A DNA stretch of 64,000 nucleotides, taken from NCBI GenBank assembly GCA_963824985.1, contig CAWGRQ010000024.1, positions 264,822 to 328,821 of the forward strand. The letters run 5' to 3'. This document shows, in pieces, positions 8,278-33,539 of this stretch. The DNA comes from Terriglobia bacterium. Lineage in GTDB: Bacteria; Acidobacteriota; UBA6911. The translations under genes were made by a program, and so were the position numbers. Under the pieces are notes generated by a model. It made no database searches and had not been told where the DNA came from. It saw only the letters and a program-made list of their open reading frames with translations. The stretch's first letter is position 1. Every line of letters starts with the position of its first letter.

Positions 8278-8281
8278 GAGT

Positions 8282-14349: not shown

Positions 14350-14558
14350 GGGACCGGAATCCTCTCTTGATCTTCGTATGCCGCCGGGAAGGCGCCCCAT
14401 ACCCAGAAGTGCATTCTAATTCAGGAAGATGGCGTTCCACAAGCATCCGGAATTGAAATTCCACCATGAGAGCCCTAAACTTACGATATACTTTTTTCGG
14501 GTGCCATGATTGACAATCGGGTTAAACACTCTGACGCCAAAATGAATTGGAGGAAAGC

Positions 14559-15524
14559 ATGAAACTGCATCGCCTGGCGGGGTTGTTCCTTTTGCTTGTT
14601 CTCACCGGTTTCGTTTCCTCCCCGGAAGCCCAGCAAAAGAAAAGGGTAGCGCTCATGGATTTCGATTTTGGAACCGTGCAGCACTGGTGGTCCGGCAACT
14701 GGGATATCGGCAAAGGGATCGCGGACATCATCGTGACCGACCTGGTGAAAGACGGCACCTTTTCGGTGGTCGAGCGCAAGAAACTGGACGCCATTCTGCA
14801 AGAGCAGAATTTCTCAAACTCGGACCGGGCCAATCCGACCAGCGCCGCCAAGATCGGCAAGGTGCTCGGTGTGAACGCGATCATCGTCGGATCGATCACA
14901 CAGTTCGGTCTGGAGGACAAATCGCTGAATGTCGGCGGCATGCTCGGCACCCTGGGCGGATTCGGGGGCGGCAAGATCGGGACCAAGCAGGGGAAGGCCA
15001 ACGTCGTTATTGACGCTCGCCTCGTGGACGTCAACACGGGCGAAATTCTGGCCGTGGCTTCCGGCAAGGGAACATCCAAGAGATCCGGCCTCCTGTTGGG
15101 TGGGGGCGGGGGTGGCGGCGGCGGATACGGCGGCGGCGGCATTGACATGGGGAGCAGCAACTTCCAGGACACCATCCTCGGTGAAGCTACGAGAGAGGCG
15201 GTTCAGTCTCTGACGACGCAACTGATCGGGCAGGCTGGGAAAGTCGAAGCGACGACCATTTCCATCGAAGGATTGGTCGCGGACGCCACGGGTGATACCG
15301 TCATCATCAATGTCGGCAAGAGCTCCGGTGTCAGCGTGGGCATGAAGCTGTCCGTCGAGCGGGTTTCGCGCGAGGTGAAGGATCCCGCCAGCGGAAAGGT
15401 ATTGCGAAAAATAACGAGCCCGGTCGGGGAAATCCAGATTACAGAAGTCGACGAGGGTTCGGCGGTGGCCAAAGTTCTCTCCGGCCAGGGCTTCAAGGTT
15501 GGAGACATGGTCAAGAACAAGTAG
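14559..15524 (+). CDS. CsgG-family (curli secretion channel-like, COG1462) periplasmic protein with Gly-rich linker and extra C-terminal beta domain
   Basis: CsgG-like blocks RVALMDFDF, IADIIVTDLVKDGTFSVVERKKLDAILQEQ, AKIGKVLGVNAIIVGSITQFG, VVIDARLVDVNTGEILAV. Signal peptide without a lipobox Cys. Poly-Gly GGGGGGGGGYGGGG. GGAGG SD 5 nt before the ATG at 14559. Confidence 0.65.
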   Translation: MKLHRLAGLFLLLVLTGFVSSPEAQQKKRVALMDFDFGTVQHWWSGNWDIGKGIADIIVTDLVKDGTFSVVERKKLDAILQEQNFSNSDRANPTSAAKIGKVLGVNAIIVGSITQFGLEDKSLNVGGMLGTLGGFGGGKIGTKQGKANVVIDARLVDVNTGEILAVASGKGTSKRSGLLLGGGGGGGGGYGGGGIDMGSSNFQDTILGEATREAVQSLTTQLIGQAGKVEATTISIEGLVADATGDTVIINVGKSSGVSVGMKLSVERVSREVKDPASGKVLRKITSPVGEIQITEVDEGSAVAKVLSGQGFKVGDMVKNK

Positions 15525-15559
15525 GCAGCGACCTCGCTCACAACCGGAAGGGGGCACCC

Positions 15560-17482
15560 ATGATCGGCGAGCTGATCGGACACCACCGCATTCTGGCTCA
15601 AATCGGACAGGGGGGGATGGGCACCGTCTATCAGGCCGAGGACACCCGGCTGGGACGCAAGGTTGCGATCAAGATCCTGAATCCGTCCCTGCTCGTCCAG
15701 GGGGGCATTGAACTGGAGCGGTTCCAATCCGAGGCAAAGGTTCAGGCCAGCCTGAATCACGCCAACGTCGTCACTCTCTTTGCGTTCGAACCTTACCAGG
15801 ACTCCTATTGCATGATCATGGAGTACGTGGAGGGGAGGACGCTGGCGGATCTGATCCGCTCCACCGGCCCCCTTCCCTCTCATGTCGTTGTCATGATCGC
15901 CAAACAGGTGTTGGACGGGCTCGCCGCGGCACACCGGCAGGGGGTGGTTCACCGCGATCTGAAGCCCTCCAACATCATGCTGACCGCCCAAGGCACGGCG
16001 AAGGTGATGGATTTCGGCATCGCCAAGGTGGATGGCGGGAAAAGCCTGACCGCGACCGGCGCTCTGGTCGGCACCGTATCCTATATGTCACCCGAGCAGG
16101 TGCGCGGGGAGCCGCTGGACGCACGCTCGGACCTGTATTCCTTCGGGATCATTCTCTTCGAACTCCTGACCGGTCGCGTCCCCTTTAAGGAGGAGAGTGA
16201 TTTTTCCGTCATGATCCACCACGTCCAGACGCCGCCGCCGCCGCTGACGCAGCTGCTTCCGGACATCCCCTCGGAGCTGGAGGATCTGGTGCTTCGTTGC
16301 CTGCACAAACAGCCGGCGGAGCGTTTTCAGAGCGCGGCTGAGATTCGTGCGGTTCTGGAAAGTTACGAGGAGCGGGAGCGCGCCTTGGGCCGCGCCGAAC
16401 TTTACACTCGCGGTGTCCTGGCGCAATGGCTGGCCGCCCCCGCCCGGGCGCCATCGGCCGCCACGGCCTCCGCGATCCTCCCGGCACCCTCCATCGGGGC
16501 ACAGGGCGGGCCACCCCAACAGGCGGCGGCGCTGTTCGGCCCGGATCCGTCGGGGGCACGTTCGATTCCGTCCGGTCCGGCGCCCGCCACGCCGACGCCC
16601 ACCCGCGGCAAAGGGGTTCTGATAGCAGCAGTCGCCGTCATGATCCTGGCGGCAGGAACCGCGTTAACCTATTTCGTGATGAACCGGCCCGCCGCCTTTC
16701 AGTTTGCCGTGAAGTCGGGCGAACCGGCCGCGCCGCAGGCTCAGGCCTCGGCGGCGTTAACGGTTCCGGAAACGGCACCGGCGGCGACGGGGCAGCCCCC
16801 TGCGCAGTCCACCCCACAGGTGTCCGCGAACGCAATGGCCCAGGCTCCCGCCTCTCCGCCAGTCGCCGGAACCGCCAGCGCATTAACGGTGCCTGCGGTC
16901 GAAAAATATGCTGCCCCTGCTCGTAAGGTGCCGGCCCGGCCGGTGCGCGCTGATCCTCCGGCTGCCGGCGCGGCTGCTCCCAAATCAACGACCGCCGCCG
17001 GGCAGACTGCGGCCCAGGTGGATCCCGTACAGACTCAATCCGCAGGCGGTTTCCTGATTTTCGTAGATCTGGACCCTTCCAGTGAAAGACTGCCCCTGGC
17101 TGCGGCTCAATCCCGGGTAGCAGAAATCCTACGCGAGGCCGGCTGCCAGGTTGTGTCCTCCGGAATCGTGAGCACCAACGTAAGGGCGGCTCTGGATCGC
17201 AATGATCTCGCGGCAGTGCGCAGCCAGGGAGTCGGGTATGTGGTCCTGGGGACGGCGCACGCTTCCCTGGAGCCGCAGACGGCTTACGGCAGCACCTATT
17301 ATGTCGGTCAGGCCACCATGGCATTCGAACTGGTGCGCATGTCGGATGGAAAGATCGCCGCCACCGGAAGCAGCGATGCCAGGAGCAAGGGCTCGGCGAA
17401 TGCGCAGGCTTCTCTGAATAACGCCCTTATGACCGCAACCTCCGACGCCGCCCGCGAATTAATGCGCAACTTCAAGCAATAA
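15560..17482 (+). CDS. Hanks-type Ser/Thr protein kinase with TM helix and C-terminal periplasmic alpha/beta domain
   Basis: GQGGMGTVYQA, VAIK, HRDLKPSNIML, DFGIAK, TVSYMSPEQ. TM VLIAAVAVMILAAGTALTYFV. C-terminal roughly 150 aa (FLIFVDLD...GYVVLGTAHASLEPQTAYGSTYYVGQATMAFELVRMSDGKIAATG) resembles the CsgG/LpoB-type fold of the adjacent gene (weak, by eye). Confidence 0.8.
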   Translation: MIGELIGHHRILAQIGQGGMGTVYQAEDTRLGRKVAIKILNPSLLVQGGIELERFQSEAKVQASLNHANVVTLFAFEPYQDSYCMIMEYVEGRTLADLIRSTGPLPSHVVVMIAKQVLDGLAAAHRQGVVHRDLKPSNIMLTAQGTAKVMDFGIAKVDGGKSLTATGALVGTVSYMSPEQVRGEPLDARSDLYSFGIILFELLTGRVPFKEESDFSVMIHHVQTPPPPLTQLLPDIPSELEDLVLRCLHKQPAERFQSAAEIRAVLESYEERERALGRAELYTRGVLAQWLAAPARAPSAATASAILPAPSIGAQGGPPQQAAALFGPDPSGARSIPSGPAPATPTPTRGKGVLIAAVAVMILAAGTALTYFVMNRPAAFQFAVKSGEPAAPQAQASAALTVPETAPAATGQPPAQSTPQVSANAMAQAPASPPVAGTASALTVPAVEKYAAPARKVPARPVRADPPAAGAAAPKSTTAAGQTAAQVDPVQTQSAGGFLIFVDLDPSSERLPLAAAQSRVAEILREAGCQVVSSGIVSTNVRAALDRNDLAAVRSQGVGYVVLGTAHASLEPQTAYGSTYYVGQATMAFELVRMSDGKIAATGSSDARSKGSANAQASLNNALMTATSDAARELMRNFKQ

Positions 17483-17982: not shown

Positions 17983-18801
17983 TCATTCGGATAGGAATTG
18001 GATCAGGACAGCCGTGATATTGTCCGGGCCTCCGCGATCGTTGGCGAGATCGATCAGAGACTGGCAGGCATCGCCCGGCCCCGAGGACTCGGCCGCCACG
18101 GCGAAGATCTCCTGAGTCGACATCTGCGAGTGCAGGCCATCCGAACAGAGGAGCACGACATCGCCGGCCTGCACGGTGATGCTCTTGAGAGCAAGCTCAA
18201 CGGTCGGACGCACGCCCATCGCCTGGAGAAGGATATTGCGCCCGGGATGCCTCCGGCCTTCCTCTTCCGTAAGTTCGCCGTCGCCCACTTTCTGCCCGAT
18301 CAGCGATTGATCACGAGTTAACTGGCGAATCTGCCCCTGACGCAGGAGATAAGCCCGGCTATCCCCCACCTGGCCGATCAGGAGGCGGCCGTGGAGTTCG
18401 AGCACGGTTGTCAGGGTCGTGCCCATCCCGGCAAATTCATGGTTGCGGGCCGCAAGCTCATAGATGCGGCTGTTTGCGCTTCCAACGGCCTCGATCAGGA
18501 TCTCTTCCAGCAGGCTTTCATCCGGCTGTCCGGTCTCACGGATCAACTCCTGGACCTCGCGGTACAAGGTCCGGACGCAGAGCTTGCTCGCCATCTCTCC
18601 GGCAGCCGCCCCCCCCATCCCATCGGCCACTGCAAACAGGGCGCCGAAGTGGGCGGTCCGGAAGCGAAGCACCCCATTCGCCTCGATCCGGACTCCCTCA
18701 CTGAGATTGGCAACGACAAAGGAATCTTCGTTGTCCACACGCACACGACCGGTGTGCGTGCCGGCAAAAGCCTCGATGTGGGTCGGCGTGGCGGCGAACA
18801 T
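17983..18801 (-). CDS. PP2C-family (PPM) Ser/Thr protein phosphatase
   Basis: GRVRVDNEDSF...FAVADGMGG...DGLHS...DNITAVL. 272 aa. Divergent from the large kinase gene. Confidence 0.8.
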   Translation of the reverse strand: MFAATPTHIEAFAGTHTGRVRVDNEDSFVVANLSEGVRIEANGVLRFRTAHFGALFAVADGMGGAAAGEMASKLCVRTLYREVQELIRETGQPDESLLEEILIEAVGSANSRIYELAARNHEFAGMGTTLTTVLELHGRLLIGQVGDSRAYLLRQGQIRQLTRDQSLIGQKVGDGELTEEEGRRHPGRNILLQAMGVRPTVELALKSITVQAGDVVLLCSDGLHSQMSTQEIFAVAAESSGPGDACQSLIDLANDRGGPDNITAVLIQFLSE

Positions 18802-19239
18802 GTCACCTCAAGATTGGCTGATACCTTTTTATCGTTCCGCTTCGGAAAATGTCAACTCAAAAGCCCATGTTGCTGCTATAATTTGCATGCAGTAATGGCT
18901 GATAAGGGGGTGTGGTGCGCTCCCGACCATGCGATCGGGCGCCTCAAAGTGAATCGCGTCGAGTTTGTGGCTGGCAGTTGCCTCCTGACTCCCGGTCGCC
19001 CATCCTCCCGGCACCAAATCCGGCTTCGCTAATCCGGCATGCCCGACTCTGGGCGTAAACCGGATCGGATTTCGCCGCGAGCCACTTTGCAAATTCCGGG
19101 CTGTTGCTATGAGGCACGGGTCGAAACCAACCATGCACAATGCCACCTACCAGGCATCGGGGAATCCCCGATCGCAATCCTATTCTGCCATCCAGGATGG
19201 GGGCGGACACCGCATCCGGCTCCTGAAAAGACGATCCCG

Positions 19240-22200
19240 ATGATTCAGAAACTGGGCAAATATTCAATTGTCGAAAAACTGGGCGAAGGCGCCATGGGCG
19301 CGGTTTACAAGGCCTACGATGAGATCCTCGACCGCTATGTCGCCATCAAGACCATGGCGGAGGATATCAAGTGGGATCCTGAGCTCAAACTGCGGTTCTA
19401 CCGCGAAGCACGATCGGCGGCCGGCCTGCATCACCCCAATATCGTGACGATCCACGATCTCGGCGAAGAAGGGAAGATCACCTACATCGTCATGGAGTTC
19501 CTGCAGGGGAAGGATCTGAAGGACATCATCAGGGAAAAACCCCCTCTTGCCCTCGAAAAGAAGCTCGCCATTATCGCCCAGGTTTGTGAAGGGCTGAATC
19601 ACGCTCATCTGGCAGGCATCATCCATAGAGATATCAAGCCCGGAAACATCCACTTTTCGGCGGACGGGAATGTCAAGATCGTCGACTTCGGCATCGCGCG
19701 TATTCCCGCTTCGGATCTCACGCGATCCGGAGTTCGGCTGGGAACGCCCATTTATATGTCCCCGGAGCAGATTCGGGGCGAAGCCTATGACGAGCGGTCG
19801 GACATGTTCTCCACCGGCATCGTGTTCTATGAACTGGTCACGTATGTGCACCCGTTCCGCGACAAGAATATCGCCAAGACCCTGGACAATCTGCTGTTCC
19901 AGAATCATTTCCCGTTTGCCGAGCAGTGTCCCGAAGCCCCGCCCGCGCTGTGGCCCATCATCAGCACGAGCCTGGCAAAGGAGCCGGCAAAGCGGTTCCC
20001 GAGCATGGCGGAAATGGGCCGGGCCTGTCGCGGCCTCCTGGTCGAAATGAATGCTGCCTCGCGGAAAATGATGAGCGATCTGAGCGCTGTCGCGCCCCGC
20101 TTGCTCCAGGCGGCATCGCGCCCGGGAGCCCCTCCCCGCCTGGGAAGCTTGTTGCAGGAAACGCAGACCGCTCTCGGCATGCGGGAACCCCCGGATCACG
20201 CCACGCTCAAGCGGTTGCTGGATTCGCTGGCTGAGGAGCGCGTTCCGGTACAGCAGGTTGAGGTTTCGAGCGTGAGCCGGGAGGGGAGAATTCCCGATGC
20301 TTCTCCCCTGCCGCCGGAAGCGCCTCCCCCCGCAGTCGTTGCCCCTCCGCCTGACCCTGATGATGTGCGGGGGCGTGATCTTCTGCATGCGGGTCAGGCC
20401 CTGTTGCAGGAGGAGCGCTTGGACGAAGCCCTGACCATATTGCACCAGGCGGTGCGGCTGCTTGGGGAAAACCAGGAACTGGCTCAAGCCCTGGCCGAAG
20501 CCAACCGCCGAACCGCAGAGCGGAAACAGGTTCAGATTGCCGCGCTGGTCGACCGGGCACGCCTGGCCTTGGCGTCCCGACAATATACTTCCGCAATCGA
20601 AGCCCTCAACGAGGTCCTGCAGCAGGAACCCGGTCATGCTGAAGCCGCGGAACTGCGGCATCAGGCGGTAGCCGAAGCCGAGGCCGAACGCGAGCAACAG
20701 GCGCGCCAGGCGGAAGGTGAGAGGGAAAAAGCCTCGGGACTGAAGCTGCTGAGCGAGGGGAAATTTCCCGAGAGCATAACGGCATTGCGGCGCGCGGCCG
20801 ACCTGCTGGGCAGTAATCCCGAGATCGAGCGGGCGCTCCGCGAAGCCGGTGAAAAGGACAAGGCGGAGCAGCAGCGGCGCCTGGTCCAGGCGAAGCTGGG
20901 GGAGGCGGTCGCCCAGCTGCGCTCCAAGGCATTCGATCAGGCCGAGACCTCGGCCCGGCAGGTGTTGGAGATCTTCCCCGGCAATGTTGAGGCGGAGGAT
21001 CTCCTGTCGCGCATCGACCGGGCGCGGCAACAGGAGCGCCGGGCCGCCGAAATTTCAAACCTCCTGGCGCAGAGCCGGGAACAACTCGACCATCAGGATT
21101 TCGAGGCTGCGCAAGCGCGCACCCGGGAAATCATGGCCCTCGATCCTGCGAACGCGGATGCCCAGTCCCTGCTCCAGGCCATTGCGGAGGCGCGGGAGAC
21201 GAAGCGGAAACAGGAAGCGATCGAGGCTGCCATCTCCGAGGGGCAGAAGGCTTTCCTTCGTGATGAAGTGGAAGAGGCTGAGAAGTTTGCGCGCCTGGCA
21301 CTCGATGCTGATCCGCAGCATGGTAAGGCGCTGGAACTCATGCGCCGCATAACGGAAATTCGCGACCGGAAGAAAAGGGAGGAGATCGCCGCTATCGTCG
21401 CCCGAGGCCGGCAGGCCCTGGTGCAGGGAGACCTGCAGGAGGCGGCCTCCCTGGGACAGCAGGCACTCCAGGCGGATCCCGAAAGTATCGAGGCGCGGAA
21501 TTTCCTCGCGTCTCTGCGGCAGGCTGAGGAATCCAGGCGTCAGGAAAAACTGGCCGCGTTTCTTGCCGGGAGTCGCCAGGCGCTGGAGAGTGGTGATTTT
21601 GCCGAGGCGACGCGCCAGGCGGAAGCCCTGCAACATCTGGATGCGCGCAACCGGGAGGCGGCTTCCCTGCTGAAGGATATCAATAACGCACGCCGCAAAA
21701 AGGAGAAGGCGGACGACAAGGAGAGGAAGCGCCTCGAAAAGGAGTCCCGCCGTCTGGCGCAGGCAACGGCGGATACGGCGCCTGAAACCGTCGATGGCGC
21801 GATTCCGGCGGAGACCACTCCGCGCCGCGGGCTGCCGAAAGCCGTAATCTGGGCCAGTGCCGGCGCGCTCCTGCTCATCATCGCAGCCGTTCTGGCATGG
21901 CAGCTGCCCCGGCTCCGGAGCAACCCCCCTGAACCGGCTGCTCAACTCGCCGCGGCCCAGACTCAACTCGATCGCGGCCTGTTCGATGAAGCAATTGCCG
22001 CCGCCCGGGAGGTTCTGGCCACTTCACCGAACAACGCCCAGGCCCAGACCTTGATCGAGGTGGCGCAAAAACAGAAAATCGCGAAGGAGGTTGCGATGCT
22101 CCTGATGGAAGCGCAGACTCTCCGATCCCAGGGGAGCCTCCAGGAGAGCCTGGACACCCTTGCGAAGTTGATATCCCTGGATCCCGCGAACGAGACCGCG

Positions 22201-23313
22201 CTGCTCGTTCAGGCCCAGATTGAAGGTGAAATCGCGGCCGGCAAGAGCAGCGCCGAACAGGAGGCCCTCGTCAAGGAGTGGCTGGCAAATGCCGCCCGGT
22301 TCCTGGGCGAAGGCAAGCAGGCCGAGGCGAAAAGGGCGCTGGACAACGTGGCAGGCCTCCGTCCGGACGCGCCCGAACTCAGACCCTTGCGCAACAAGCT
22401 GAAAGCGCTCACGGATGAAGCGGCCCGCGCCGAGAAAGGCAGAATCGATCTCGCCCAGAAACAGAAGCAAGTAGACGAGTGGAACAGTCAGGCCGGTGAG
22501 AAATTCAAGCAGGGAAGATATGGCGAAGCCTTGACAATCCTCGAACAGTGGCTGTCGGCAGCGCCGCAGAACGCGCAGGCGCAGGATTTGCAGCGCCAGG
22601 CATCCCTGGCGCAGCAGAGCCAGCGCGCCTATGACACTCACATGGCACAAAGGAACTATGACGAAGCCCTGAGGGCCGCGGCGCAACTGGAGAAAATCAA
22701 TCCTGCCGATCCTTCCGTTGCCGAGCTCCGCAAACGGGCGGAAGCACGCAAGGCGGCCGCCAAGGCGACCCTGTCCATTTACCGCCTGGGTGAACCGGCA
22801 AGCCTGTTTCTGGATGATGAACCGCTTGGAACCGCCGGCGAGTTGGAGGATCGCGTGGTCAGCGCCGGCCGGCATAAGGTCACGGTTCAAGTCAGCAGCG
22901 GCAAGCAGAGCACCTGGACCGCCGACCTGAGTGAAGGGCAGAAAGTGATCCTGGCCTATGATGCCGCCGCCCTGTCCTTGCGCCCCATGGTGGATGCGGA
23001 CCGTGAGTTGCTTTCCATGCGCAAAATCCGGGAAGAAGTCCACAGCTTCGAGGTGGAACACCGCCACGGGATTCTGGGCATCACCAAGTGCACCGGAATC
23101 CTGAAGATCAGCGGGCTCAGGGTCGAATTTCGGAGCCCGGATCATGCCCTGGATACGACTTTCGCCAACGTCAGGCTCAAGAACGCGAACAACGATCGGA
23201 TCGAACTGGAAACGGTCGACACCAAACAGTCATGGTCCTTTAAAATGCGGGATGCCGCCCAGGCAAAGGCAGTCAAGGAACTGTGGGACAGGTTGACCAA
23301 ACTCGGCAAATAG
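19240..23313 (+). CDS. Ser/Thr protein kinase with very long TPR/coiled-coil repeat region, single TM, periplasmic TPRs and C-terminal PEGA-like domain
   Basis: Start MIQKLGKYSIVEKLGEGAMGAVYKA at 19240; the 5' 200 nt of the track ORF look non-coding. HRDIKPGNIHF, DFGIAR. About 6 roughly 68-aa TPR-like repeats. TM AVIWASAGALLLIIAAVLAW. C-terminal TLSIYRLGEPASLFLDDEPLG...HKVTVQVSSG. Confidence 0.8.
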   Translation: MIQKLGKYSIVEKLGEGAMGAVYKAYDEILDRYVAIKTMAEDIKWDPELKLRFYREARSAAGLHHPNIVTIHDLGEEGKITYIVMEFLQGKDLKDIIREKPPLALEKKLAIIAQVCEGLNHAHLAGIIHRDIKPGNIHFSADGNVKIVDFGIARIPASDLTRSGVRLGTPIYMSPEQIRGEAYDERSDMFSTGIVFYELVTYVHPFRDKNIAKTLDNLLFQNHFPFAEQCPEAPPALWPIISTSLAKEPAKRFPSMAEMGRACRGLLVEMNAASRKMMSDLSAVAPRLLQAASRPGAPPRLGSLLQETQTALGMREPPDHATLKRLLDSLAEERVPVQQVEVSSVSREGRIPDASPLPPEAPPPAVVAPPPDPDDVRGRDLLHAGQALLQEERLDEALTILHQAVRLLGENQELAQALAEANRRTAERKQVQIAALVDRARLALASRQYTSAIEALNEVLQQEPGHAEAAELRHQAVAEAEAEREQQARQAEGEREKASGLKLLSEGKFPESITALRRAADLLGSNPEIERALREAGEKDKAEQQRRLVQAKLGEAVAQLRSKAFDQAETSARQVLEIFPGNVEAEDLLSRIDRARQQERRAAEISNLLAQSREQLDHQDFEAAQARTREIMALDPANADAQSLLQAIAEARETKRKQEAIEAAISEGQKAFLRDEVEEAEKFARLALDADPQHGKALELMRRITEIRDRKKREEIAAIVARGRQALVQGDLQEAASLGQQALQADPESIEARNFLASLRQAEESRRQEKLAAFLAGSRQALESGDFAEATRQAEALQHLDARNREAASLLKDINNARRKKEKADDKERKRLEKESRRLAQATADTAPETVDGAIPAETTPRRGLPKAVIWASAGALLLIIAAVLAWQLPRLRSNPPEPAAQLAAAQTQLDRGLFDEAIAAAREVLATSPNNAQAQTLIEVAQKQKIAKEVAMLLMEAQTLRSQGSLQESLDTLAKLISLDPANETALLVQAQIEGEIAAGKSSAEQEALVKEWLANAARFLGEGKQAEAKRALDNVAGLRPDAPELRPLRNKLKALTDEAARAEKGRIDLAQKQKQVDEWNSQAGEKFKQGRYGEALTILEQWLSAAPQNAQAQDLQRQASLAQQSQRAYDTHMAQRNYDEALRAAAQLEKINPADPSVAELRKRAEARKAAAKATLSIYRLGEPASLFLDDEPLGTAGELEDRVVSAGRHKVTVQVSSGKQSTWTADLSEGQKVILAYDAAALSLRPMVDADRELLSMRKIREEVHSFEVEHRHGILGITKCTGILKISGLRVEFRSPDHALDTTFANVRLKNANNDRIELETVDTKQSWSFKMRDAAQAKAVKELWDRLTKLGK

Positions 23314-23410
23314 TCCATGGCGCGCGGGAAAGAATTGGAAGATCGAAAGTGACTGCAGTATTCTCATGTGAGTCATGCAACACATCTGCCAGTCGGCGAG
23401 GGAGAGCACT

Positions 23411-23878
23411 ATGAAAGCAGCGCGTCACTTGCTTCTGTTGATTCCCCTGGGTCTGTCTTCTATGCTGTTGACCGGATGCCCCAAGCAGCCGGCCAAGATC
23501 AACATCGTTATGAACGCGGCCGCCAACATCAACCCGGATACGAGCGGTCAGGCCCTGTCGGTCGTGGTTCGCATCTATCAGCTCAAGGACAAGGGCCGCC
23601 TGGAATCCGCGGATTACAACGCCATCTGGAAGTCCGACAAGGAAACGCTCTCGGATGACCTGTTGGAAAGACAGGAGCGCATCGTGCAGCCGGGAACCCA
23701 GGAAATGATCGAGATCCAGACCAATCCGATGGCGAATTACCTCGCCGCGGTGGCTCTCTTCCGCAATCCTTCCGGAGACTCCTGGCGCAAGATCATCCCG
23801 ATCAACAAGGGCAAGACGCAGAAGATTGCTTTAGCCCTTCGCGAGCAGACCATCGAAATCACCTCGAGCGCCAGATAG
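23411..23878 (+). CDS. tssJ: Type VI secretion system lipoprotein TssJ (SciN/VasD family)
   Basis: Lipobox LLTGC. INIVMNAAANINPDTSGQALSVVVRIYQLKDKGRLESADYNAIW...LGVVALFRNPSGDSWRKIIPI closely follows the TssJ/SciN pattern (INPD..G.A.P.VVRLYQLK). GGGAGAG SD. Confidence 0.8.
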   Translation: MKAARHLLLLIPLGLSSMLLTGCPKQPAKINIVMNAAANINPDTSGQALSVVVRIYQLKDKGRLESADYNAIWKSDKETLSDDLLERQERIVQPGTQEMIEIQTNPMANYLAAVALFRNPSGDSWRKIIPINKGKTQKIALALREQTIEITSSAR

Positions 23879-23890
23879 GGACCACGGATC

Positions 23891-25243
23891 ATGACACCAC
23901 TGCAGAAAGTCCTGTGGAGCGAGGGGCTGTTCCTGACCCCTCACCACCTTCAACAATGGGATCGATATCACGAAGACGTGTTGAACTTCCGCATTCGCGC
24001 GCTGTCGACCTTCATGTGGGGCGCGGAAGAGCTGAAGTTCAATGAGGAGGCGCTCGAAAACGGCACCTTTGAAGTCCTGCGTTGCCGAGCCGTCCTGCCG
24101 GACGGCTCGGCGATCGACATCCCCGATGTCGATGCTCCGCCGCCGCTGCGCGACTTCACGGATTGCTTCGCCCCGACCAGCGACCGCATGGATGTCTACC
24201 TTGCCGTGCCGGTGGTGCGTTCCGGATCCGCTAATGTGGCGGGGACGGACAAGAAGGCCGCCTTCATGGCGCGCTACCTGCCGACGCAGGCTCATGTCCC
24301 GGATGAAAACACGGGCGAGAATGAGTTGCCAGTGACCTTCGCGGCCAAAAACATGCGCCTCCTGTTCGGGGAGGAGTCGCTCGACAATCATGCGGCTCTC
24401 AAGATCGCCGAGGTGCGCCGCACCCCGGAAGGCAAGACCGTTCTGGAGGAGGGGTACATCCCGCCGGCTTTGAGCCTCTCTGCGGCGCGCCCTTTAACCG
24501 ATATTGTCCGCCGCCTGCTCGAGATCCTGTCCGCCAAGAGCACAACGCTTGGAGAGCAGCGCCGGCAAAAGTCCGCCGGAGTCGCCGACTTTACCACTTC
24601 GGACGTGGCGACCTTCTGGCTGCTGCACACGGTGAACGCCTACATTCCGTCGATGATGCACTTCCACCACGTTCAGCGCGTACATCCCGAGCAGCTCTAC
24701 CTGACGATGGCGAGCCTGGCCGGCGAACTGATGACCTTCGTCACGGAAGGGCACCCGACCGAACTCCCCAAATACATCCACACCGATCTGACCAACACGT
24801 TCGCCCAGCTGGATCGCAAGCTGCGGGTCTTGCTCGAAACCGTCATCCCCACCCGCTGTGTGCCGATTCCCCTGGAGCGAACCAAGGAATCTCTCTACAT
24901 CGGCCGGATTCTGGACGAACGCCTGCCGGTCAGCGCCGAGTTTTACCTTGGTGTCTACGCCAAGCTTCCCGAAGCCCAGATATTGGAGAGGGTGCCGCGC
25001 AAGAGCAAGATCGCCTCGCTCGACACCATCAACTATCTGCTGGGCCAGGCACTCCCCGGCGTGCTGCTCCGCCCGGTGCCGGTGCCACCGGGTCCGATTC
25101 CCGTTCGAGTCGGCTTCAAGTATTTCCGGCTCGAAAAGCTGGGCACCTATTGGGACACCATCGCAGCGTCACGCAACATCTGTATATACTTCCCGGCGGA
25201 ATTTCCCGATCTCCGCCTCGAGCTGTTTGCCGTCAAAGATTGA
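23891..25243 (+). CDS. tssK: Type VI secretion system baseplate subunit TssK (ImpJ/VasE)
   Basis: 450 aa. N-terminal LWSEGLFLTPHHLQQWDRYHE matches the TssK consensus (LWSEG.FL.PQHFQQ.DRY). Lies between tssJ and tssL. Confidence 0.8.
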   Translation: MTPLQKVLWSEGLFLTPHHLQQWDRYHEDVLNFRIRALSTFMWGAEELKFNEEALENGTFEVLRCRAVLPDGSAIDIPDVDAPPPLRDFTDCFAPTSDRMDVYLAVPVVRSGSANVAGTDKKAAFMARYLPTQAHVPDENTGENELPVTFAAKNMRLLFGEESLDNHAALKIAEVRRTPEGKTVLEEGYIPPALSLSAARPLTDIVRRLLEILSAKSTTLGEQRRQKSAGVADFTTSDVATFWLLHTVNAYIPSMMHFHHVQRVHPEQLYLTMASLAGELMTFVTEGHPTELPKYIHTDLTNTFAQLDRKLRVLLETVIPTRCVPIPLERTKESLYIGRILDERLPVSAEFYLGVYAKLPEAQILERVPRKSKIASLDTINYLLGQALPGVLLRPVPVPPGPIPVRVGFKYFRLEKLGTYWDTIAASRNICIYFPAEFPDLRLELFAVKD

Positions 25244-25441
25244 CATCGGGGGGTGCGGCTTGTAGGCCGCGAAATTATTGACGTCTGGAACCTGTTGTGA
25301 CGAATCAGTTGACTGATCTGCCGGAGTTCCATGTGTCGGCCAGCGGGCTATCGCCGCTTCCCGGCCCGTGCGCCCCTCGCCGCAGGTCTGATTGGGTGTC
25401 ACAAAACTCTTCAGTCCCCTTCGGGGAAAAGGTATGAGGCC

Positions 25442-26158
25442 ATGACTCCGGCTCGCGATCCACACGAGGCGACTTCGTTTGAATCCTCCTCAGGCACCAG
25501 TCCCGGCCTGGTCGATTTGTGCACGGACGCCTTTCTGTTGATCTTTTTTATCCACCAGGGGAGGGACCCGGGCCAGCCCGACCAGCTGCGCAAGGAGATT
25601 GCGCTCCTGCTTCAGGATCTGGATAAACGGGGCAAAAGGCATGGGTACGGAGAGGAGGATCTCAAGGCGGCGCGGTATGCGTTATGTGCTCTGCTGGACG
25701 AGACCATCCTCAATTCCCGTTGGTCCTACAAGGACCAGTGGGCCGACCGCCCGCTCCAGCTCGAATATTTCGGCGAACACATGGCCGGGGAGAGGTTTTT
25801 CGATCTGCTCGACCGAGTGCGCGGGAAGGGCTCCCGCAAGGTCGATTTGCTCGAGGTTTTCTGCATGGCCCTGATTCTGGGGTTTCAGGGACGGTACAAG
25901 TTGCGCGGCAGCGATGAGCTGCCCAACCTGATCCGGGAACTGGTCGGAGAAATCAACGGACATCGGGGTTCCCCACGCGGCCTGTCTCCTCACGGACAGA
26001 TTCCGGAAGAGCCGGAAGAGGCTCCGGCCAGAGTGTTGCCCCGTTGGGTGTGGATCACGGCCCTGACTTCAGTGATCCTGGTGATTCTCGTGTTTGTCAT
26101 TTTCAAGCTTTGGCTCGGCTCGACTGCGGACCAGGCCATAGCGCGCATGGTGGTGTAA
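25442..26158 (+). CDS. tssL: Type VI secretion system membrane subunit TssL (DotU/ImpK family)
   Basis: DotU-family block YALCALLDETILNS...RKVDLLEVFCMALILGFQGRY. Single C-terminal TM VWITALTSVILVILVFVIF. Confidence 0.75.
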   Translation: MTPARDPHEATSFESSSGTSPGLVDLCTDAFLLIFFIHQGRDPGQPDQLRKEIALLLQDLDKRGKRHGYGEEDLKAARYALCALLDETILNSRWSYKDQWADRPLQLEYFGEHMAGERFFDLLDRVRGKGSRKVDLLEVFCMALILGFQGRYKLRGSDELPNLIRELVGEINGHRGSPRGLSPHGQIPEEPEEAPARVLPRWVWITALTSVILVILVFVIFKLWLGSTADQAIARMVV

Positions 26159-26261
26159 CCGACATCGGCAGGGCTCCTTTCCCGCCCGGACTTTTCCCGG
26201 ACGGGAATGATGTCGGATCGCACCTCTCCTTGAAACCGGAAGGCCGAAAAAGCGCTACCTT

Positions 26262-29200
26262 ATGAATCCCAATCCACAACAGACTCCGCCGCTACCGCCA
26301 CGGCCTGCTTCCGTGACGAAATTGTTCGCCATCGCCAGCATCTGCCTTGCGGTCGCCACCGCCGGCCTCTGGGCCGTCGACAATTTCCTGGGACGCGACA
26401 CGTTCAAAATCGTACTGATGATCCTGCTGGTCTTCCTGGGCGCCCTGATCATTTTCTGGCTGGTGCTGTGGCTGTTCCGCAAGCTCTTCTCCGCGGCCGC
26501 CGCCTCCCGTGAACGACGCCTGGAAGAACAGGCGGCGGCGCGGCGCCAGGGAGCCAGCCCTGAAGAACGGGCCGAGCTGGACGGATTACAGGAACAGTTG
26601 AACGTGGCGGTCCGTGTCCTCCGCGATTCCAAGTTGGCCAAGGGGAAGAAGGGGGATGAAGTCCTCTACACGCTCCCCTGGATCCTCATGCTCGGTCCGG
26701 ATGAATCGGGCAAGACCAGTGCTTTGCGGGAGTGCGGCGTCGATTTTCCTTACACCACCGCCGAGGGGCGGAAGCCGACCCGTGGCCCGGCCCCGGGCTG
26801 CGATTACTGGTTTTCACGCGGCGCTGTCATGCTTGACCTGGCGGGGCGCATCGGTGCCGGTGAGGAAGGGTCCGAGACGTTTCAGGGATTCCTCGACCAG
26901 CTCAAGCGCGCGCGCAAAGAGCGGCCCTTGAACGGCGTGGTCGTGACCATAAGCATCGCGGACCTGCTGCATCAACCCGCGGATGAGGTCGAACGGCTGG
27001 CCAATCGTTTGCGGCACCGCTTTGACGAAATGATCAAGCGTCTCGGCATCCGCTTTCCCATTTATGTTTTGTTCACCAAGTGCGACCAGGTTGAAGGCTT
27101 CCGGGAGTTTTTCGGCAATCTGCGCAGCCGCGACCGCTCCCAGGTGTGGGGCGCGACCATATCCCACGCTCAGCGCAAGCGGCTTTCCGCCGCCCAGATC
27201 TTTTCCCAGGAATATGACCGGCTGGTGGCGGAGCTCTCCACCTACCGGCTCCCCTTGCTGGCCAGCGAGAAGAATCCGCAGAACCAACCCTTGATTTACA
27301 CGTTCCCCACCCGGATGGCGGCATTGCGCGAGCGCTTGACCAGTTTCATGAGTGTCCTCCTGCAGCCGACCCCCTATTCCGAGCGGCCCATGTTCCGCGG
27401 TTTTTACATGGCCAGCGCGGCCGGCGGGCCGCCGGCGGAGGCTCCGGTCCGGGAAGTGCCGCAGCAGTGGGAACCCGGCCGTCGATTCGAAGCGGAAGCC
27501 GATCAGCCCAAGACGGCGGCCCGCAGTTACTTCCTCGAGACGCTGTTTCCTCAGATCTTTTTCGCCGACCGCTCGCTGGCAACCGCGTCGGTGGACACGA
27601 GGTTGCGCCGCCGGCTGTGGCTCGACATCGCGTTCATCGGAACCCTGGCCCTGTGTCTGACGCTGCTCGTCGGCATGATCTTCTCATTCATGGAAAACCG
27701 GGCGCTGATCGAACATGTGCGCCTGGCTTCCCTGCACCTGGCCGATGCGGGCTGGGATGGCAGGCGGACCACCGACCTTATGGCCATGGAGGACCTGCAC
27801 CAGAAGGTCGAGGAACTCGACCGTTACCAGACCGAAGGTCCGCGCTGGGCATTGGGCTGGGGCCTTTACAGCGGCAATGCCGTTAATCCCGCCGCCCGGC
27901 GGATCTACTTCCGGAGATTGCGGGATACCTTCGTCGCCCCGACCGCTGAAGTCCTGAGGCGCAAGCTCAACGGCTTCGCATCGGGCGCGGACAGTGCCGC
28001 GGCGTACGACGATTTCTACACGACCCTGAAAGCCTACCTGATGATGACGGAGCCGCAACGCGCGGAAGAATCCTTCCTGAATAATGCGCTGGGCGCCCCC
28101 TGGAAAGGGATCGCGGCACGGGATGCGGAAGAGGTCGCGCTGAAGCAGCTCCGCTTTTATGCCCGGCAACTCCCCAAGAACCAACCCGAACTCCAGTTGA
28201 CTCAGGACGCCGATCTCGTCGCCCGAGCCCGCCGCGCGCTCAGCCAGTTCCCGGCCCTGGTCCGTATGTACACGCGTCTCAAGAACGAGGGGAATGCCAA
28301 ACTCCCCCCTTATACGCTGGCCATCGCCACCGGGGGTAAAAGCCTCGATTACATGAATTCGAGCTTTGATGTGCCGGGAGTATTTACGGAAGCCGGCTGG
28401 CGCACCTACTTCAAGAACGCGGTCGCGCAGGCCAGCCAGGAAGTCATCAAGGATGACTGGGTGCTGGGTCCAACTTATGCCTATGCGCCCTCCGGGGGGA
28501 TTTCCGACGCCGATTACGCCAATAAAATCCTCGACATGTACTACGCGGAATACTCCGACGTCTGGTCCCGTTTCCTGGAAGGAGTTTCCGTGCGCTCGCT
28601 CGCCGACCTGACCGAGGCGCGCGGCGCGCTGGACTCCTTCTCACAACAGGATTCAGCCTTGTCACGCCTCCTGATGAACGTGGGCGCGCAAACGATGCTG
28701 CGACGCAATCCCGAGCAGGGCGGAAGCGTCACCGACATGGTTTCCGGCGCCCTGGCAACGCTGGGCTTGTCGACGAGAGTCAACCGGGAAGATCTGGTGA
28801 CGGCGATCGCCGACCAGTTCGCTCCCCTGCATGACATGATCACGTCTCCCGACGGCAAATCCCCTGCGCTGTCGGCTCAGTATGTCGAAGTGATCGGCCG
28901 GATTCACTCCAAGCTGGAAGCCCTCTTCGGCGCCGGCACTCAATGGGAACAGGTGAAGGCCTACGTGGGGATGATCGCGACCAATATTTCCGGAGACGAG
29001 TTCCACGACGGCTTCCGGGTTACCTCGCGTGTGACCCAGATGTGCCGGACCAGGAGCACCCAGCCGATCGGATCCCTGCTGGAACAGCCGCTGCGTCAGT
29101 CGTGGGCCGCGATTCTGCGCGATGTCGGATACCGCCTCGATGGGCTCTGGAAAACCCGCATTGCAGAGACCTATCGCCGCGACGTGGAAAGCCGTTTTCC

Positions 29201-29873
29201 CTTCAACCCAAACGGGCAGGACCTGCCGCTTTCGATGCTGGCTCAATATCTCAAACCCGGGGATGGCAGCCTCTGGGCTTTCTATGAAGCCGAGCTGAAA
29301 ATGTTCCTGACCCCGTCGGAGAATCAGTGGGCCGCGTCAACATTGATCGGCGCCCAGGTCGATTTCGCGCCCGGATTTCTCGAGTTTCTGGGACGGGCCA
29401 ATGCCGTGCGTCAGGCCTTGTATGGATCGGGAGGAGCGGACCCGACCATAACCTTCGACCTCACTCCGGAACCGACTCCCGGAATGACGGAAAGCCTGCT
29501 CGATATCGACGGCCAGAAACTCCTGTATCGCAATGAGCGCGCGCTGCCGCAGCCCTTCACCTGGCCGGGTAAATCCGGGTCTCCCCAGGCGAAAATCTCG
29601 ATTTCCATCACCAGCTCGGGCGAGCGCCCCGGCATTCCCACCATCGATGGGGAGTGGGCCTTTTTCCGGCTGCTGGGCCGCGCCAGCGTCGCGCCGCAGT
29701 CGCAGACCGCCTATGGCGTGACGTGGTCGCTGCCAGGCGCCGATGGCCGGAAATTCGATGTCCGTTACCGGCTGCAGGCGAGAAATGTGCAGAATCCGTT
29801 CCTGCCCCAATTCTTCAGCCGGGTCCGGTGCCCGGAGAAGGTGACCCAGTTGCCGTCTTTGTCCCGCTATTAG
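26262..29873 (+). CDS. tssM: Type VI secretion system membrane subunit TssM (IcmF family)
   Basis: 1203 aa. Three N-terminal TM segments. Walker A LGPDESGKTS after LYTLPWILM. Long IcmF-related periplasmic region. Canonical size and position after tssL. Confidence 0.85.
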   Translation: MNPNPQQTPPLPPRPASVTKLFAIASICLAVATAGLWAVDNFLGRDTFKIVLMILLVFLGALIIFWLVLWLFRKLFSAAAASRERRLEEQAAARRQGASPEERAELDGLQEQLNVAVRVLRDSKLAKGKKGDEVLYTLPWILMLGPDESGKTSALRECGVDFPYTTAEGRKPTRGPAPGCDYWFSRGAVMLDLAGRIGAGEEGSETFQGFLDQLKRARKERPLNGVVVTISIADLLHQPADEVERLANRLRHRFDEMIKRLGIRFPIYVLFTKCDQVEGFREFFGNLRSRDRSQVWGATISHAQRKRLSAAQIFSQEYDRLVAELSTYRLPLLASEKNPQNQPLIYTFPTRMAALRERLTSFMSVLLQPTPYSERPMFRGFYMASAAGGPPAEAPVREVPQQWEPGRRFEAEADQPKTAARSYFLETLFPQIFFADRSLATASVDTRLRRRLWLDIAFIGTLALCLTLLVGMIFSFMENRALIEHVRLASLHLADAGWDGRRTTDLMAMEDLHQKVEELDRYQTEGPRWALGWGLYSGNAVNPAARRIYFRRLRDTFVAPTAEVLRRKLNGFASGADSAAAYDDFYTTLKAYLMMTEPQRAEESFLNNALGAPWKGIAARDAEEVALKQLRFYARQLPKNQPELQLTQDADLVARARRALSQFPALVRMYTRLKNEGNAKLPPYTLAIATGGKSLDYMNSSFDVPGVFTEAGWRTYFKNAVAQASQEVIKDDWVLGPTYAYAPSGGISDADYANKILDMYYAEYSDVWSRFLEGVSVRSLADLTEARGALDSFSQQDSALSRLLMNVGAQTMLRRNPEQGGSVTDMVSGALATLGLSTRVNREDLVTAIADQFAPLHDMITSPDGKSPALSAQYVEVIGRIHSKLEALFGAGTQWEQVKAYVGMIATNISGDEFHDGFRVTSRVTQMCRTRSTQPIGSLLEQPLRQSWAAILRDVGYRLDGLWKTRIAETYRRDVESRFPFNPNGQDLPLSMLAQYLKPGDGSLWAFYEAELKMFLTPSENQWAASTLIGAQVDFAPGFLEFLGRANAVRQALYGSGGADPTITFDLTPEPTPGMTESLLDIDGQKLLYRNERALPQPFTWPGKSGSPQAKISISITSSGERPGIPTIDGEWAFFRLLGRASVAPQSQTAYGVTWSLPGADGRKFDVRYRLQARNVQNPFLPQFFSRVRCPEKVTQLPSLSRY

Positions 29874-30459: not shown

Positions 30460-33400
30460 ATGAAAATGTGTCAACGCGGGTCGCGGTGGGGCGGCTGGAA
30501 GCGGGTCGTCCGTATCGCATATGTTTCGGTTCTCTCGCTCATCCCATTCTCAATGTTGGCGTGGCAGGAAACCACGCGGCCGAGCCTGCCGCCTGGCGCG
30601 GCTGTGTCGCTGCCGTTCAGCGGACCGGGCTGGCAGGAAAAGGTTCTGACGTATGAGGGCTACGTCAGCTCCGCCGAAAGAGCTCGCCGATGCCGTGTTG
30701 GCGCCGCGGGAAGCCAACATCACACTCAGCAACCCGAGTCCCGACAAAAAGTGGTTCCTCGATGAGATCGGCGACGGTCCCACGCCGATGTCGATCTTCG
30801 GGCGACCCTTCGATGAGTTGGGCGGCGTGTTCATCGACTTCAAGGCCAACCGGCTGCGCTCGATGACGCTGCGCAATACGATAGGCATCCAGATTATCTT
30901 GGCCGCCGATGGATCAAAAAAGGTCATCGCAACGCCGCCGAATACCCGGGTGACCGGCGCGCGCTGGACGCCGGACGGCACGGGTGTCGCCTACATGTCG
31001 CTCGGCGACGACTCGACGCACGTTTGGATCACCGACATCGCGACCAACAAAGCGCGCCAGGTGACGAAGGCGTCGCTCGTGACGACCTCCGTGACGAATT
31101 TCGCTTTCGTGAACGGCGGCAAACAGATCGTCGCGACATTTGCGCCCGATGGCCGTAAGCCGCGGCCGGTGCCGCCCCCGGTGCCGCCTCGGGCCCGAGG
31201 TTCGCACGGCGCTCACCGGTGAGAAGGAGCGCGTGCGGACATTCCCGAGTCTGATGTCCACGCCCTACGACTTCCAACTGCTCGAGTGGCACGCGACGAC
31301 TCAGATCGCGATCGTCGACGTCGCCACCGGCGTCGCGACCAGGTTCGGCACGCCCGGCATGATCACGGCCGTCGACATGTCCCCGGACGGGAAATTCGCG
31401 TCGTGTGACGCGCATGACGAAGCCGTTCGCATACACGGTGCCCGCCAACAGTTTCGGATCGATCGAAGAATTGTGGGACAGCACGGGAAAGGCGCTCGCG
31501 AAGATCAATGAGCGGCCGATCAATCTTGGGGCGGTGCCCGACAACCTGGATCCGCTCGCGCCGCAGCCTGATCCCGCGGCGCAGGCGCCGGGAGGCGGCC
31601 GGGGCAACGCCGCCGCCGACAACGGCAAACGCGAGCTCGCGTGGCGGACCGACGGCCAGGGCATGAACTACCTGCAGCTTGAACCACTCCCACCTGGCGT
31701 CCGAAACGCGGCCGGGCGGGGAGGTCGCAACGCCGCTGCGCGGGACGGGGCCGGAACCGGAGGACGCGGCACAACCGCTCAGACCGGCAACCGCGGCGTA
31801 ACGGGCGCGCGCACAGCAACCCGCCGCGCCGCCGCGCAAAGACCGGCTCATGCAGTGGATGCCGCCGTTCAGCGACACCAGCATGAAGCTGCTCTACGAG
31901 AACCCGACGCGCATGACCGGCGTGCGCTTCTCGCCTGATGGACAGATTATTTTCTTCTACCGAGAACAACGCCACGGTGGCCGTGTACTCTGAGCGACAC
32001 CGGCGCAGAAGTACACGATCGTGCGCGGCGGCGGTGGAGCTCGTGGCGGCAACGCCGCTCCTGCTGATCCCGCGGTGACTCCGCCGGCCGATCCGACAGC
32101 CGCGCCACAGGGCCGAGGCGGGGCCGCTCCTAATCCGGGAGGCACGCTCGTCGGCGTCCGTGGCGCTGGCGCCGGCGGCGGTGGTGGCACCGCGGCGGTG
32201 GCGGCGGCGGCCGTGGCGGTGGCGGCGGCGCTGCGGGCCCGGTGCTGCTCTCGGACAGACGGCACGAGCGTGTTTCTGCAGGGCTCGACCGGCGGTGGCC
32301 GCGGAACGAACAATGCGCCGGCAACGCAATGCGCCGGCGAATCCGCCCGCGCGCCAATGCACCCGCGGCCAGTACGCCCGCGGCCGTCGCGTGGGTCGAC
32401 AAGGTCAATATCAAGACCGGCGAGAAAACCCGCGTCTTCCAGGGCGAGAACACGGACTTGGTCGAGCGCATCTCGATGATTCTCGATCCCGAAACCAAGC
32501 GATTCATCCTCACGAAGGAGAATGCAAAGACGCCGCCGCAGCAATTCCTGTACGAGAATGGCACGCGCAAGCAGCTCACGAACAACGAGGATCTGTTCCC
32601 GGACCTCACGAGGATGGTCGTGCAGCGTTTCACCGTGAAGCGGGCGGATGGGTTCATCTTCCGGACGACGGTCAGTTTGCCGAGCGACTACAAGCCCGGC
32701 AAGCGGCTGCCGGCGTTCTTCTGGTTCTATCCGGCGGAGTTCACTTCGCAGGAAGCTTACAACAGCGGACGCGGCGGTGACGCCGGCGCTACCGGCGGCA
32801 CCACGTTCCCGAATTTCGGGACGCTCTCGAAACAGTTCCTCGTCCGGTTGGGTTCGCGGTCGTCGAAAATGACGCACCCATCGTCGGTCCGCAGGGCCAG
32901 ATGAACAACAACTACGTGAACGATCTGCGGAATGACCTGTCGGCGACGATCGACGAGCTGGACAAGCGCGGACTGATCGACCGCGAGAAACTGGCGATTG
33001 GCGGGCACAGCTATGGCGCGTTCTCGACGGTGAATGCGATGGTCAACACGCCATTCTTCAAGGCCGGCATCGCCGGCGACGGCGCGTACAACCGGACTCT
33101 GACGCCGAATGGCTTCCAGAGCGAGCGCCGGGATCTGTGGGAAGCGCCGAACGTCTACCTCGACATGTCGCCGTTCCTCAGAGCCAACCAACTCACTGGC
33201 GCGTTGTTGATGTATCACGGCATGCACGATCAGAACGTCGGTACAGATCCGATCAACTCGCTGCGGCTGTTCCACGCGTTGAACGGCCTGGGCAAGATCA
33301 CGGCGCTCTACCGTTATCCGTTCGAGGATCACGGCCCGGCGGCGCGTGAGACCCTGCTCGACCTTTGGTCACGCTGGGCCGCGTGGCTCGACAAGTACGT

Positions 33401-33539
33401 TAAAAATCCGGAGCCGGAAGACCAAGCCCAAACCCACCTCAGGGCGCGGCGGCGGCGGACGGTAAACGGTTTTGGGCGGATCCAACTTCCGATCCGCCGC
33501 CTCCTCATGGGCGGGATCTCCACGATCCCGCCCATTTAA
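30460..33539 (+). pseudogene. S9-family (prolyl oligopeptidase/DPP-type) serine peptidase with TolB-like beta-propeller, disrupted by at least 4 frameshifts
   Basis: Pieces lie in frames of ORFs 30391, 30653, 31140, 31405, 32242 and 32901. N-terminal signal peptide, WD-like propeller (RWTPDGTGVAYMS), catalytic GGHSYGAF (GxSxG), LLMYHGMHDQNVG. Paralog of the intact gene at 49914-52097 and shares its Gly/Arg-rich insert. One shift is a G-run deletion at about 32840. Confidence 0.6.

Follow-up and report, generated by a model that had tools for sequence, protein, structure and literature searches.

Can the membrane complex of a type VI secretion system (T6SS) be kept by a bacterium without the contractile machine that it anchors? 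The question is raised by a stretch of 64,000 nucleotides of acidobacterial DNA, here termed the window (Terriglobia bacterium, assembly GCA_963824985.1, contig CAWGRQ010000024.1, positions 264,822–328,821). At window positions 17983–29873, genes for a PP2C-type phosphatase and a giant Ser/Thr kinase stand before tssJ, tssK, tssL and tssM, and the window has no genes for the contractile parts. We consider it probable, though by no means certain, that these genes specify a normal, functioning membrane complex and that its contractile half is encoded at another place in the genome, i.e. a split T6SS and not a new machine.

TssJ, an outer-membrane lipoprotein of the SciN family, is encoded at 23375–23878 on the plus strand (PF12790, 4.5e-34; TIGR03352, 120.6 bits against a cutoff of 31.6). 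It has a signal peptide with the lipobox LLTGC (L-T-G-C), and translation probably starts at the Met codon at 23411, which gives 155 aa. TssK, the baseplate subunit that links the baseplate to the membrane complex (23891–25243, +; PF05936, 5e-136; TIGR03353, 415 bits), is full length: PF05936 covers residues 1–429 of 429, and the TssK structures of enteroaggregative Escherichia coli (EAEC), 5m30 and 6giy, match over the whole length (2e-54). TssL, a short form of DotU (25442–26158, +; DotU, 7e-57), lies in an open reading frame (ORF) that is longest from 25331. The likely start is 25442, and the resulting 238 aa agree with relatives of 238–239 aa. The protein has one C-terminal transmembrane segment (residues 240–258 of the long ORF) and is without a peptidoglycan-binding domain. 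TssM, the IcmF-family inner-membrane core of the complex (26262–29873, +), scores 759 bits with TIGR03348 against a cutoff of 388 and has four IcmF Pfam domains, three transmembrane segments and the Walker A motif GPDESGKT. An IcmF of the type IVB kind was considered for this protein and rejected, as the IcmF_IVB model gives only 138 bits against a cutoff of 1000. In domain content and topology, TssJ, TssL and TssM are those of a canonical T6SS-i membrane complex. A database TssM entry (P0001) on a contig of 381,554 bp is 100% identical to the window TssM. An earlier note, made from the letters alone, had named these four proteins; the identities are correct, and in a profile hidden Markov model check all of them match far beyond chance (PF12790, PF05936, DotU and TIGR03348).

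The kinase gene and tssJKLM form a single co-directional run, and all six genes, the phosphatase included, are intact. The phosphatase (17983–18801, −), which the note had placed divergently from the kinase, is real (PF13672 (PP2C_2), 7e-17; NCBIfam Stp1/IreP, 7e-68). It is a PP2C-type Ser/Thr phosphatase, an analogue of PppA/TagG, with its metal-binding motifs visible in the sequence, and its position is kept in the related loci L001/L008, L009 and L003/L011 (L numbers denote loci throughout). The kinase is a transmembrane Hanks Ser/Thr kinase of 1357 aa (19240–23313, +; Pkinase, 2e-51, with many TPR-family matches). Its longest ORF, 19039–23313, has 1424 aa; the ATG at 19240, where several orthologues begin aligning, gives the shorter length. 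The catalytic motifs are intact (G-loop, VAIK, HRD, DFG and SPE). The order of parts is a kinase domain, cytoplasmic TPRs, one transmembrane segment (residues 935–953 of the 1424-aa ORF by a hydropathy scan), periplasmic TPRs and a beta-rich C-terminal domain. Thus, the architecture described in the note stands as far as the kinase domain and the TPRs on both sides of the membrane are concerned, but its ‘PEGA-like’ domain is unconfirmed: there is no Pfam PEGA match in the C-terminus, only a sub-threshold BiPBP_C, and a single-sequence AlphaFold2 model of this part is beta-rich and of low confidence (pLDDT 57.6), not good enough to search for related folds. The kinase is analogous to PpkA but not orthologous. 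Orthologues are found 5′ of tssJ in nine loci (L001, L003, L004, L009, L010, L012, L015, L018 and L037). In L003/L011 the last ~290–300 aa, the periplasmic beta-rich end, form a separate ORF (L003:6468–7397); the break stems either from an erroneous frameshift or from a genuine division of the sensor domain.

Both Pfam and tblastn bear out that tssJKLM stands alone in the 64 kb. Pfam finds no T6SS family among the ~46 further ORFs of the window, which encode peptidases, kinases, an outer-membrane protein (OMP), permeases, a PIN toxin and others instead. A tblastn search of the window with TssA, TssB, TssC, TssE, TssF, TssG, ClpV, VgrG and the fused sheath proteins from the operon's own lineage finds nothing, not even remnants. 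Within the 64 kb, TssK has neither TssE, TssF, TssG nor VgrG beside it by either method. Contractile genes are missing for 17 kb upstream and 34 kb downstream of the operon, and TagF, TagR, TagQRST and the ABC-type TagTS are not seen among the window ORFs with Pfam.

The relatives of the operon place this layout in context. About 45 TssM relatives are 48–84% identical to the window protein; a gap follows, and all canonical TssM proteins are at or below 29%. A genome scan with TssM patterns of this clade only, over species representatives among which the window's genome is not included, gives ten loci, all in metagenome-assembled genomes (MAGs) of uncultured Acidobacteriota, none of which has more than one TssM of this clade. 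A metagenome scan with the alignment of one of the fused sheath proteins described below (C2) adds at least four in-clade loci, too few for a census. The tssJKLM genes are those of an Acidobacteriota-specific T6SS lineage with two sister clades, here termed A and B. In a neighbour-joining tree of TssM, computed without support values, loci that have no sheath genes form one clade (B, ~22 database clusters), and loci with fused sheath genes form its sister (A, ~21 clusters). TssK identity is ~80–92% within clade B (at least 79.7%) and at most 72.3% between B and A.

Clade A consists of L002/L005, L006, L003/L011, L004, L012, L015, L018 and L037, with the short loci L007, L014 and L019. As a rule, the gene of the giant kinase stands before tssJKLM here too, and L003 has the PP2C gene there as well. 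Directly after tssM are genes for two paralogous fused TssB–TssC proteins, C1 (~490 aa) and C2 (~603–625 aa), which are 25% identical to one another, and each of which comprises a TssB (VipA) part and a TssC (VipB) part. The C1–C2 pair is at L002:13601–16887, L003:13603–17045, L004:13578–16880 and L015:8458–11872, and further at L016:8464–11821 and L037:8481–11812. VgrG, PAAR, DUF2169, Rhs or other effectors, and ClpV follow the pair. In MFD00905.bin.2.153 the genes beyond are those for ClpV, TssG, TssF, TssE, canonical TssC, TssB and TssA, a gene of 261 aa and a divergent FHA-FHA-SLT gene of 571 aa; the entire cluster spans ~36 kb. In L017, the only cluster followed that far, C1 and C2 are present in addition to canonical separate TssB and TssC. 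A non-exhaustive search for Hcp in clade A (L017 and L003/L015/L037) finds none in the precomputed Pfam matches or in ten unannotated ORFs (E ≤ 1). The tube gene of clade A is either elsewhere or too divergent to be recognized.

Several observations concern the sheath proteins more widely. C1/C2-like pairs are also found in distant low-GC metagenome loci (L025–L029), and a literature search on fused sheath proteins found nothing. A single fused TssB–TssC-like protein of 629 aa (P0146) is present in a different type of cluster (L038:1–17630, also L039–L041), which has PG_binding_1 proteins, a CarboxypepD_reg protein, two small unannotated proteins and large Rhs/SpvB/TcdB toxins, and no TssJKLM, VgrG or ClpV nearby. 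The fused sheath group of P0146 (35–37% identity) was considered as part of the lineage and set aside, as it belongs to this unrelated cluster. Canonical TssC database matches are at most ~58% identical to the TssC of the lineage and were rejected as orthologues.

Clade B is represented by five loci: the window, L001/L008, L013, L009 and L010. The genomes besides that of the window are MFD05942.bin.2.7 (CAVRJA01), CTSoil_012 (JAFNAG01), SRP231805_co4_31 (CAZHQK01) and gp18 AA62 (QHZE01). The layout is PP2C, kinase and tssJKLM, with no sheath genes, and then an FHA gene and a gene for an FHA-FHA-TM-SLT protein (TM, transmembrane segment). Ratios of nonsynonymous to synonymous substitution (dN/dS) among clade B loci are 0.04–0.10 for TssK, 0.09–0.27 for TssM and 0.05–0.37 for PP2C, TssJ, TssL and the FHA proteins, with synonymous sites saturated, and TssM diversity within the clade reaches down to 55% identity. 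By the TssM tree, the TssK identities and these low ratios at saturated synonymous sites, the genes are functional and under strong purifying selection, and the layout is ancient and not the result of a recent deletion. The idea that the gene order is conserved without sheath genes nearby is borne out in five of five clade B loci; however, the sister clade has the same kinase-tssJKLM run in a complete T6SS cluster.

The two FHA genes of the window are some distance from tssM. One (47315–48058, −; FHA, 8e-20) encodes a cytoplasmic FHA protein with a coiled-coil tail, an analogue of Fha1/TagH. In L009 and L010 its orthologue immediately follows tssM, and in L001/L008 it comes 5 kb later; it is seen in clade B only, with no match in the clade A loci. 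The 261-aa gene before tssA in clade A was considered as its homologue and is not homologous. The other (48164–49879, +; two FHA domains, 3e-40; SLT, 7.5e-14) encodes the FHA-FHA-TM-SLT protein, which has two cytoplasmic FHA domains, a transmembrane segment at residues 258–276 and a periplasmic lytic-transglycosylase domain with the motifs E-S, GMWQF and SYNYG visible. Orthologues in L001, L009 and L010 are 54–75% identical. From tssM to the FHA pair there are zero genes in L009/L010, 5 kb in L008, and 17.4 kb with unrelated genes in the window. Since the same two FHA genes stand directly after tssM in L009 and L010, synteny supports the assignment of both window FHA proteins to the tssJKLM circuit; the FHA proteins that the note had listed at 47.3–49.9 kb are thus real by their domain matches and are members of the same circuit. 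In clade A locus L017, an FHA-FHA-SLT gene of the same 571-aa architecture (L017:1–114) adjoins the tssA operon, and in the distant locus L034 a related FHA-SLT gene (11565–12908) follows a sheath gene. The FHA-FHA-TM-SLT gene is thus recurrently linked to T6SS genes: its neighbours are tssA in clade A and tssM in clade B, and in a distant lineage it comes behind a sheath gene.

How are the missing parts to be explained? Under the favoured reading, that of a T6SS whose contractile half is encoded elsewhere, the genes for the sheath, the tube, the TssE/F/G wedge, TssA, ClpV and VgrG would have moved to another place in the window's genome. The synteny of the FHA pair with tssM and the strong purifying selection on all clade B genes agree with this reading. 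Sister clade A keeps an orthologous kinase-tssJKLM run continuous with C1–C2, VgrG, effectors and ClpV, and its contractile genes lie between tssM and the FHA-SLT gene. In addition, TssK and TssM are conserved region by region alike in A and B, with a windowed ratio of 0.93–1.20 along TssM. Fixed differences between the clades amount to eight positions in TssK and two in TssM, mostly conservative. The stem of clade B is not elongated in the TssM tree, and for the same degree of TssM divergence, TssK has changed less in B than in A. We know of no role for TssK beyond joining TssFG to TssLM. As the constraint on TssK is unchanged, its partners should still exist. There is also evidence that the two halves can be separated: L016 (contig Ga0366829_1000350) has C1–C2, PAAR, Rhs, DUF2169, VgrG and ClpV, with housekeeping genes in the place of tssJKLM. 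Moreover, if the absence of Hcp from the clade A clusters holds, one or more essential T6SS genes of the lineage lie outside the cluster anyway.

A number of points weigh against a split. Besides the flanks of the window operon, where no contractile gene is found, four other clade B loci have none within 10 kb. The layout of L009/L010 equals that of clade A minus the interval from tssM to the FHA-SLT gene, as a plain deletion would give. The C2 tree has no sizeable sister group that would fit ~22 clade B lineages, and its single L016 branch sits inside the diversity of clade A. No C2-like protein or ClpV is found on the 381,554-bp contig or on the 1.19-Mb contig of L008 among the matches listed; it should be pointed out that the C2-like and ClpV searches missed known members, including full-length ClpVs, and that the ClpV matches were almost only fragments. 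Finally, the scheme set out further below assumes that TssL is phosphorylated and that the SLT protein is recruited, and both assumptions are carried over from other systems by analogy.

Several of these points fit a true reduction, which is possible, although it appears distinctly less probable. The ancestor of clade B would have deleted ~30 kb, with the sheath, wedge, TssA, ClpV, spike and effector genes, and would have kept the kinase-gated TssJ-TssL-TssM, together with TssK and a dedicated FHA protein that cuts peptidoglycan, for another job. The complex might, for instance, anchor the envelope or form a conduit through it under regulation, or some other cytoplasmic machine might dock on it. 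That L009/L010 look like clade A with the middle removed speaks for such an event, as do the lack of contractile genes near any clade B locus, the lack of a clade-B-sized sister group of fused sheath genes and the new FHA gene at the junction in clade B only. The sheath-less layout is, moreover, monophyletic, diverse (TssM to 55% identity, ~22 clusters) and under purifying selection, and is no recent accident. A precedent exists in IcmF/DotU, co-opted by the Legionella type IVB system. However, TssK and TssM display no shift in constraint, almost no clade-specific substitutions and no long stem, which one would not expect after the loss of their partners; no function of TssK is known apart from TssF/G, and the protein searches behind the census missed known members. 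A split is favoured over loss because the evidence from constraint was weighed more heavily.

There is very little to suggest that the operon is a spare membrane complex, i.e. that a second, complete and more canonical T6SS with its own tssJLM is present elsewhere in the genome and that the window operon is an extra, kinase-controlled copy serving or modulating it. Many bacteria have more than one T6SS cluster, and these differ in how complete they are (Boyer, 2009; PMC2660368); the clade-specific patterns of the genome scan would, moreover, miss a distant TssM. On the other hand, all ten genomes found have a single TssM of this clade, the identity to canonical TssM proteins does not exceed 29% and parts that distant are not known to work when mixed, and no positive evidence points to such a second system.

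The remainder of the window bears on the state of the assembly. Genes broken into collinear out-of-frame pieces are found at 37068–40129 (−), 8123–8878 (+) and 60060–62529 (+), with further genes probably broken likewise at 30653–33539 (+) and 55955–57687 (+). Among the broken genes are a CarboxypepD_reg/OMP beta-barrel gene (in three pieces), half of a class-V aminotransferase gene and a duplicated MacB/FtsX permease gene. In the related long-read MAG locus L017, the core genes for TssC and ClpV are split in the same way. The long T6SS genes of the window are intact. Because core genes are likewise split in L017, the frameshifts are probably assembly errors and not pseudogenes. Several TssM relatives come from Microflora Danica long-read MAGs, and this origin probably explains the split genes in the window and in L017. 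That the operon itself is a decaying remnant of a lost T6SS with frames intact by chance, as the frameshift-split genes around it might suggest, is the least credible explanation of all, since five divergent genomes all have the six long ORFs (among them those of 1357 and 1203 aa) unbroken, the low dN/dS with saturated synonymous sites among clade B loci contradicts decay, and the frameshifts fit long-read assembly errors, such breaks being found inside core genes of MAGs from the same project.

Other neighbouring genes deserve mention. A second Hanks kinase with TPRs (45107–47266, −; Pkinase, 2e-50, with TPR matches) lies next downstream of the FHA gene and is read in the same direction; it is uncertain whether this kinase belongs to the module, and in L001 and L009 a different second kinase comes after the FHA-SLT gene. 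The 17-kb gap between tssM and the FHA genes, found only in the window, contains a PIN-domain toxin gene (41092–41490, −) with a small overlapping ORF, a candidate antitoxin. Just upstream of the PP2C gene is a gene for a CsgG-family lipoprotein with an FlgT-like C-terminal domain (14547–15524, +), which stands between two further Hanks kinase genes (12655–14400, −, and 15560–17482, +); the whole stretch, 12655–17482, is not kept beside the module in L001. A promoter and terminator scan gave results at chance level, and a viral-contig scan found nothing.

How might the six genes and the FHA pair work together? The kinase would sense an envelope or periplasmic cue through its periplasmic TPRs and beta-rich domain and would phosphorylate a threonine. 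The best candidate lies in the short N-terminal tail of TssL: Thr11 (numbered from the start at 25442; window positions 25472–25474) is invariant in 13 of 13 loci from both clades, whereas the residues around it vary, and the TssL of Agrobacterium, which PpkA phosphorylates, makes it by analogy a candidate phospho-acceptor. The FHA proteins would then bind the phospho-threonine, and the FHA-FHA-TM-SLT protein, thereby held at the nascent complex, would open the peptidoglycan locally so that TssJLM spans the envelope. TssK would then dock the baseplate, and the PP2C phosphatase would reset the switch. These steps are modelled on the Pseudomonas and Agrobacterium pathways (PMC2660368; PMC13584744).

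What would either outcome mean? If the contractile half is encoded elsewhere, the locus represents a cleanly split T6SS in a phylum where the T6SS is almost unstudied. It still offers a giant TPR sensor kinase that takes the place of PpkA, and a cluster-encoded FHA-FHA-TM-SLT protein where model systems borrow housekeeping enzymes for opening the wall. If loss is true in the ~22 clade B lineages, this would be the first T6SS membrane complex, with TssK, to be selected without the machine that it anchors, and it would bear on the function of TssJLM and on how secretion machines are dismantled and reused. It is conceivable, if rather less than probable, that a clade of soil Acidobacteriota has long kept a phospho-threonine-gated TssJ-TssL-TssM with TssK and an FHA-lytic-transglycosylase and without contractile parts, to act alone or with another partner.

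The nearest known parallel is the H1-T6SS of Pseudomonas aeruginosa, with its threonine phosphorylation pathway (PpkA/TagE, PppA/TagG and Fha1/TagH) and the operon fha1-tssJ1-tssK1-tssL1-tssM1-tagF-pppA-ppkA (PMC2660368; PMC13584744). In both, tssJ-tssK-tssL-tssM, in the same order, are accompanied by genes for a transmembrane Hanks kinase, a PP2C phosphatase and an FHA protein, and in H1 the latter three constitute a post-translational switch at the membrane complex. Thus, the claim that a kinase, phosphatase and FHA set wired to tssJKLM is an undescribed arrangement was too strong, as this is the organization of the H1-T6SS (PMC2660368; PMC13584744) and is known already. There are nevertheless differences. 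The PpkA of H1 has a periplasmic von Willebrand A domain, whereas the window kinase has TPRs on both sides of the membrane and a beta-rich domain. The H1 operon abuts a tssA-B-C-hcp-E-F-G-clpV-vgrG operon, none of whose genes are within the 64 kb of the window, and H1 has the partners TagF and TagQRST, none of which are seen in the window.

In Agrobacterium tumefaciens, PpkA phosphorylates Thr14 of TssL, and Fha binds the phosphorylated TssL. The window TssL likewise has a short N-terminal tail with an invariant Thr, and a kinase and FHA proteins are co-encoded. However, the context of the window Thr is without demonstrated homology to the Agrobacterium site, and the window has two FHA proteins, one of which is membrane-bound. 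A different comparison is with the IcmF and DotU proteins of the Legionella Dot/Icm system, homologues of TssM and TssL that work outside a T6SS and provide a precedent for keeping proteins of these types without a contractile apparatus. The window TssM differs in that it passes the T6SS model and fails the type IVB one; TssJ and TssK are present, and there are no genes of a type IVB secretion system.

The lytic transglycosylase gives the last comparison. MltE, recruited by TssM in EAEC, and TagX of Acinetobacter cut peptidoglycan for the insertion of TssJLM (PMC13584744). The predicted cell-wall-cleaving enzyme of the window likewise appears dedicated to T6SS assembly, but in this lineage it is cluster-encoded and fused through a transmembrane segment to two cytoplasmic FHA domains. 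The FHA-transglycosylase fusion is absent from a 2026 catalogue of accessory factors (PMC13584744), and a full-text literature search found no other paper on it. Judged from its domains, the fusion would couple wall cutting to phospho-threonine signalling. What is new here, then, is the TPR sensor kinase architecture, the fusion of FHA domains to a lytic transglycosylase and a stand-alone layout that is conserved across a clade.

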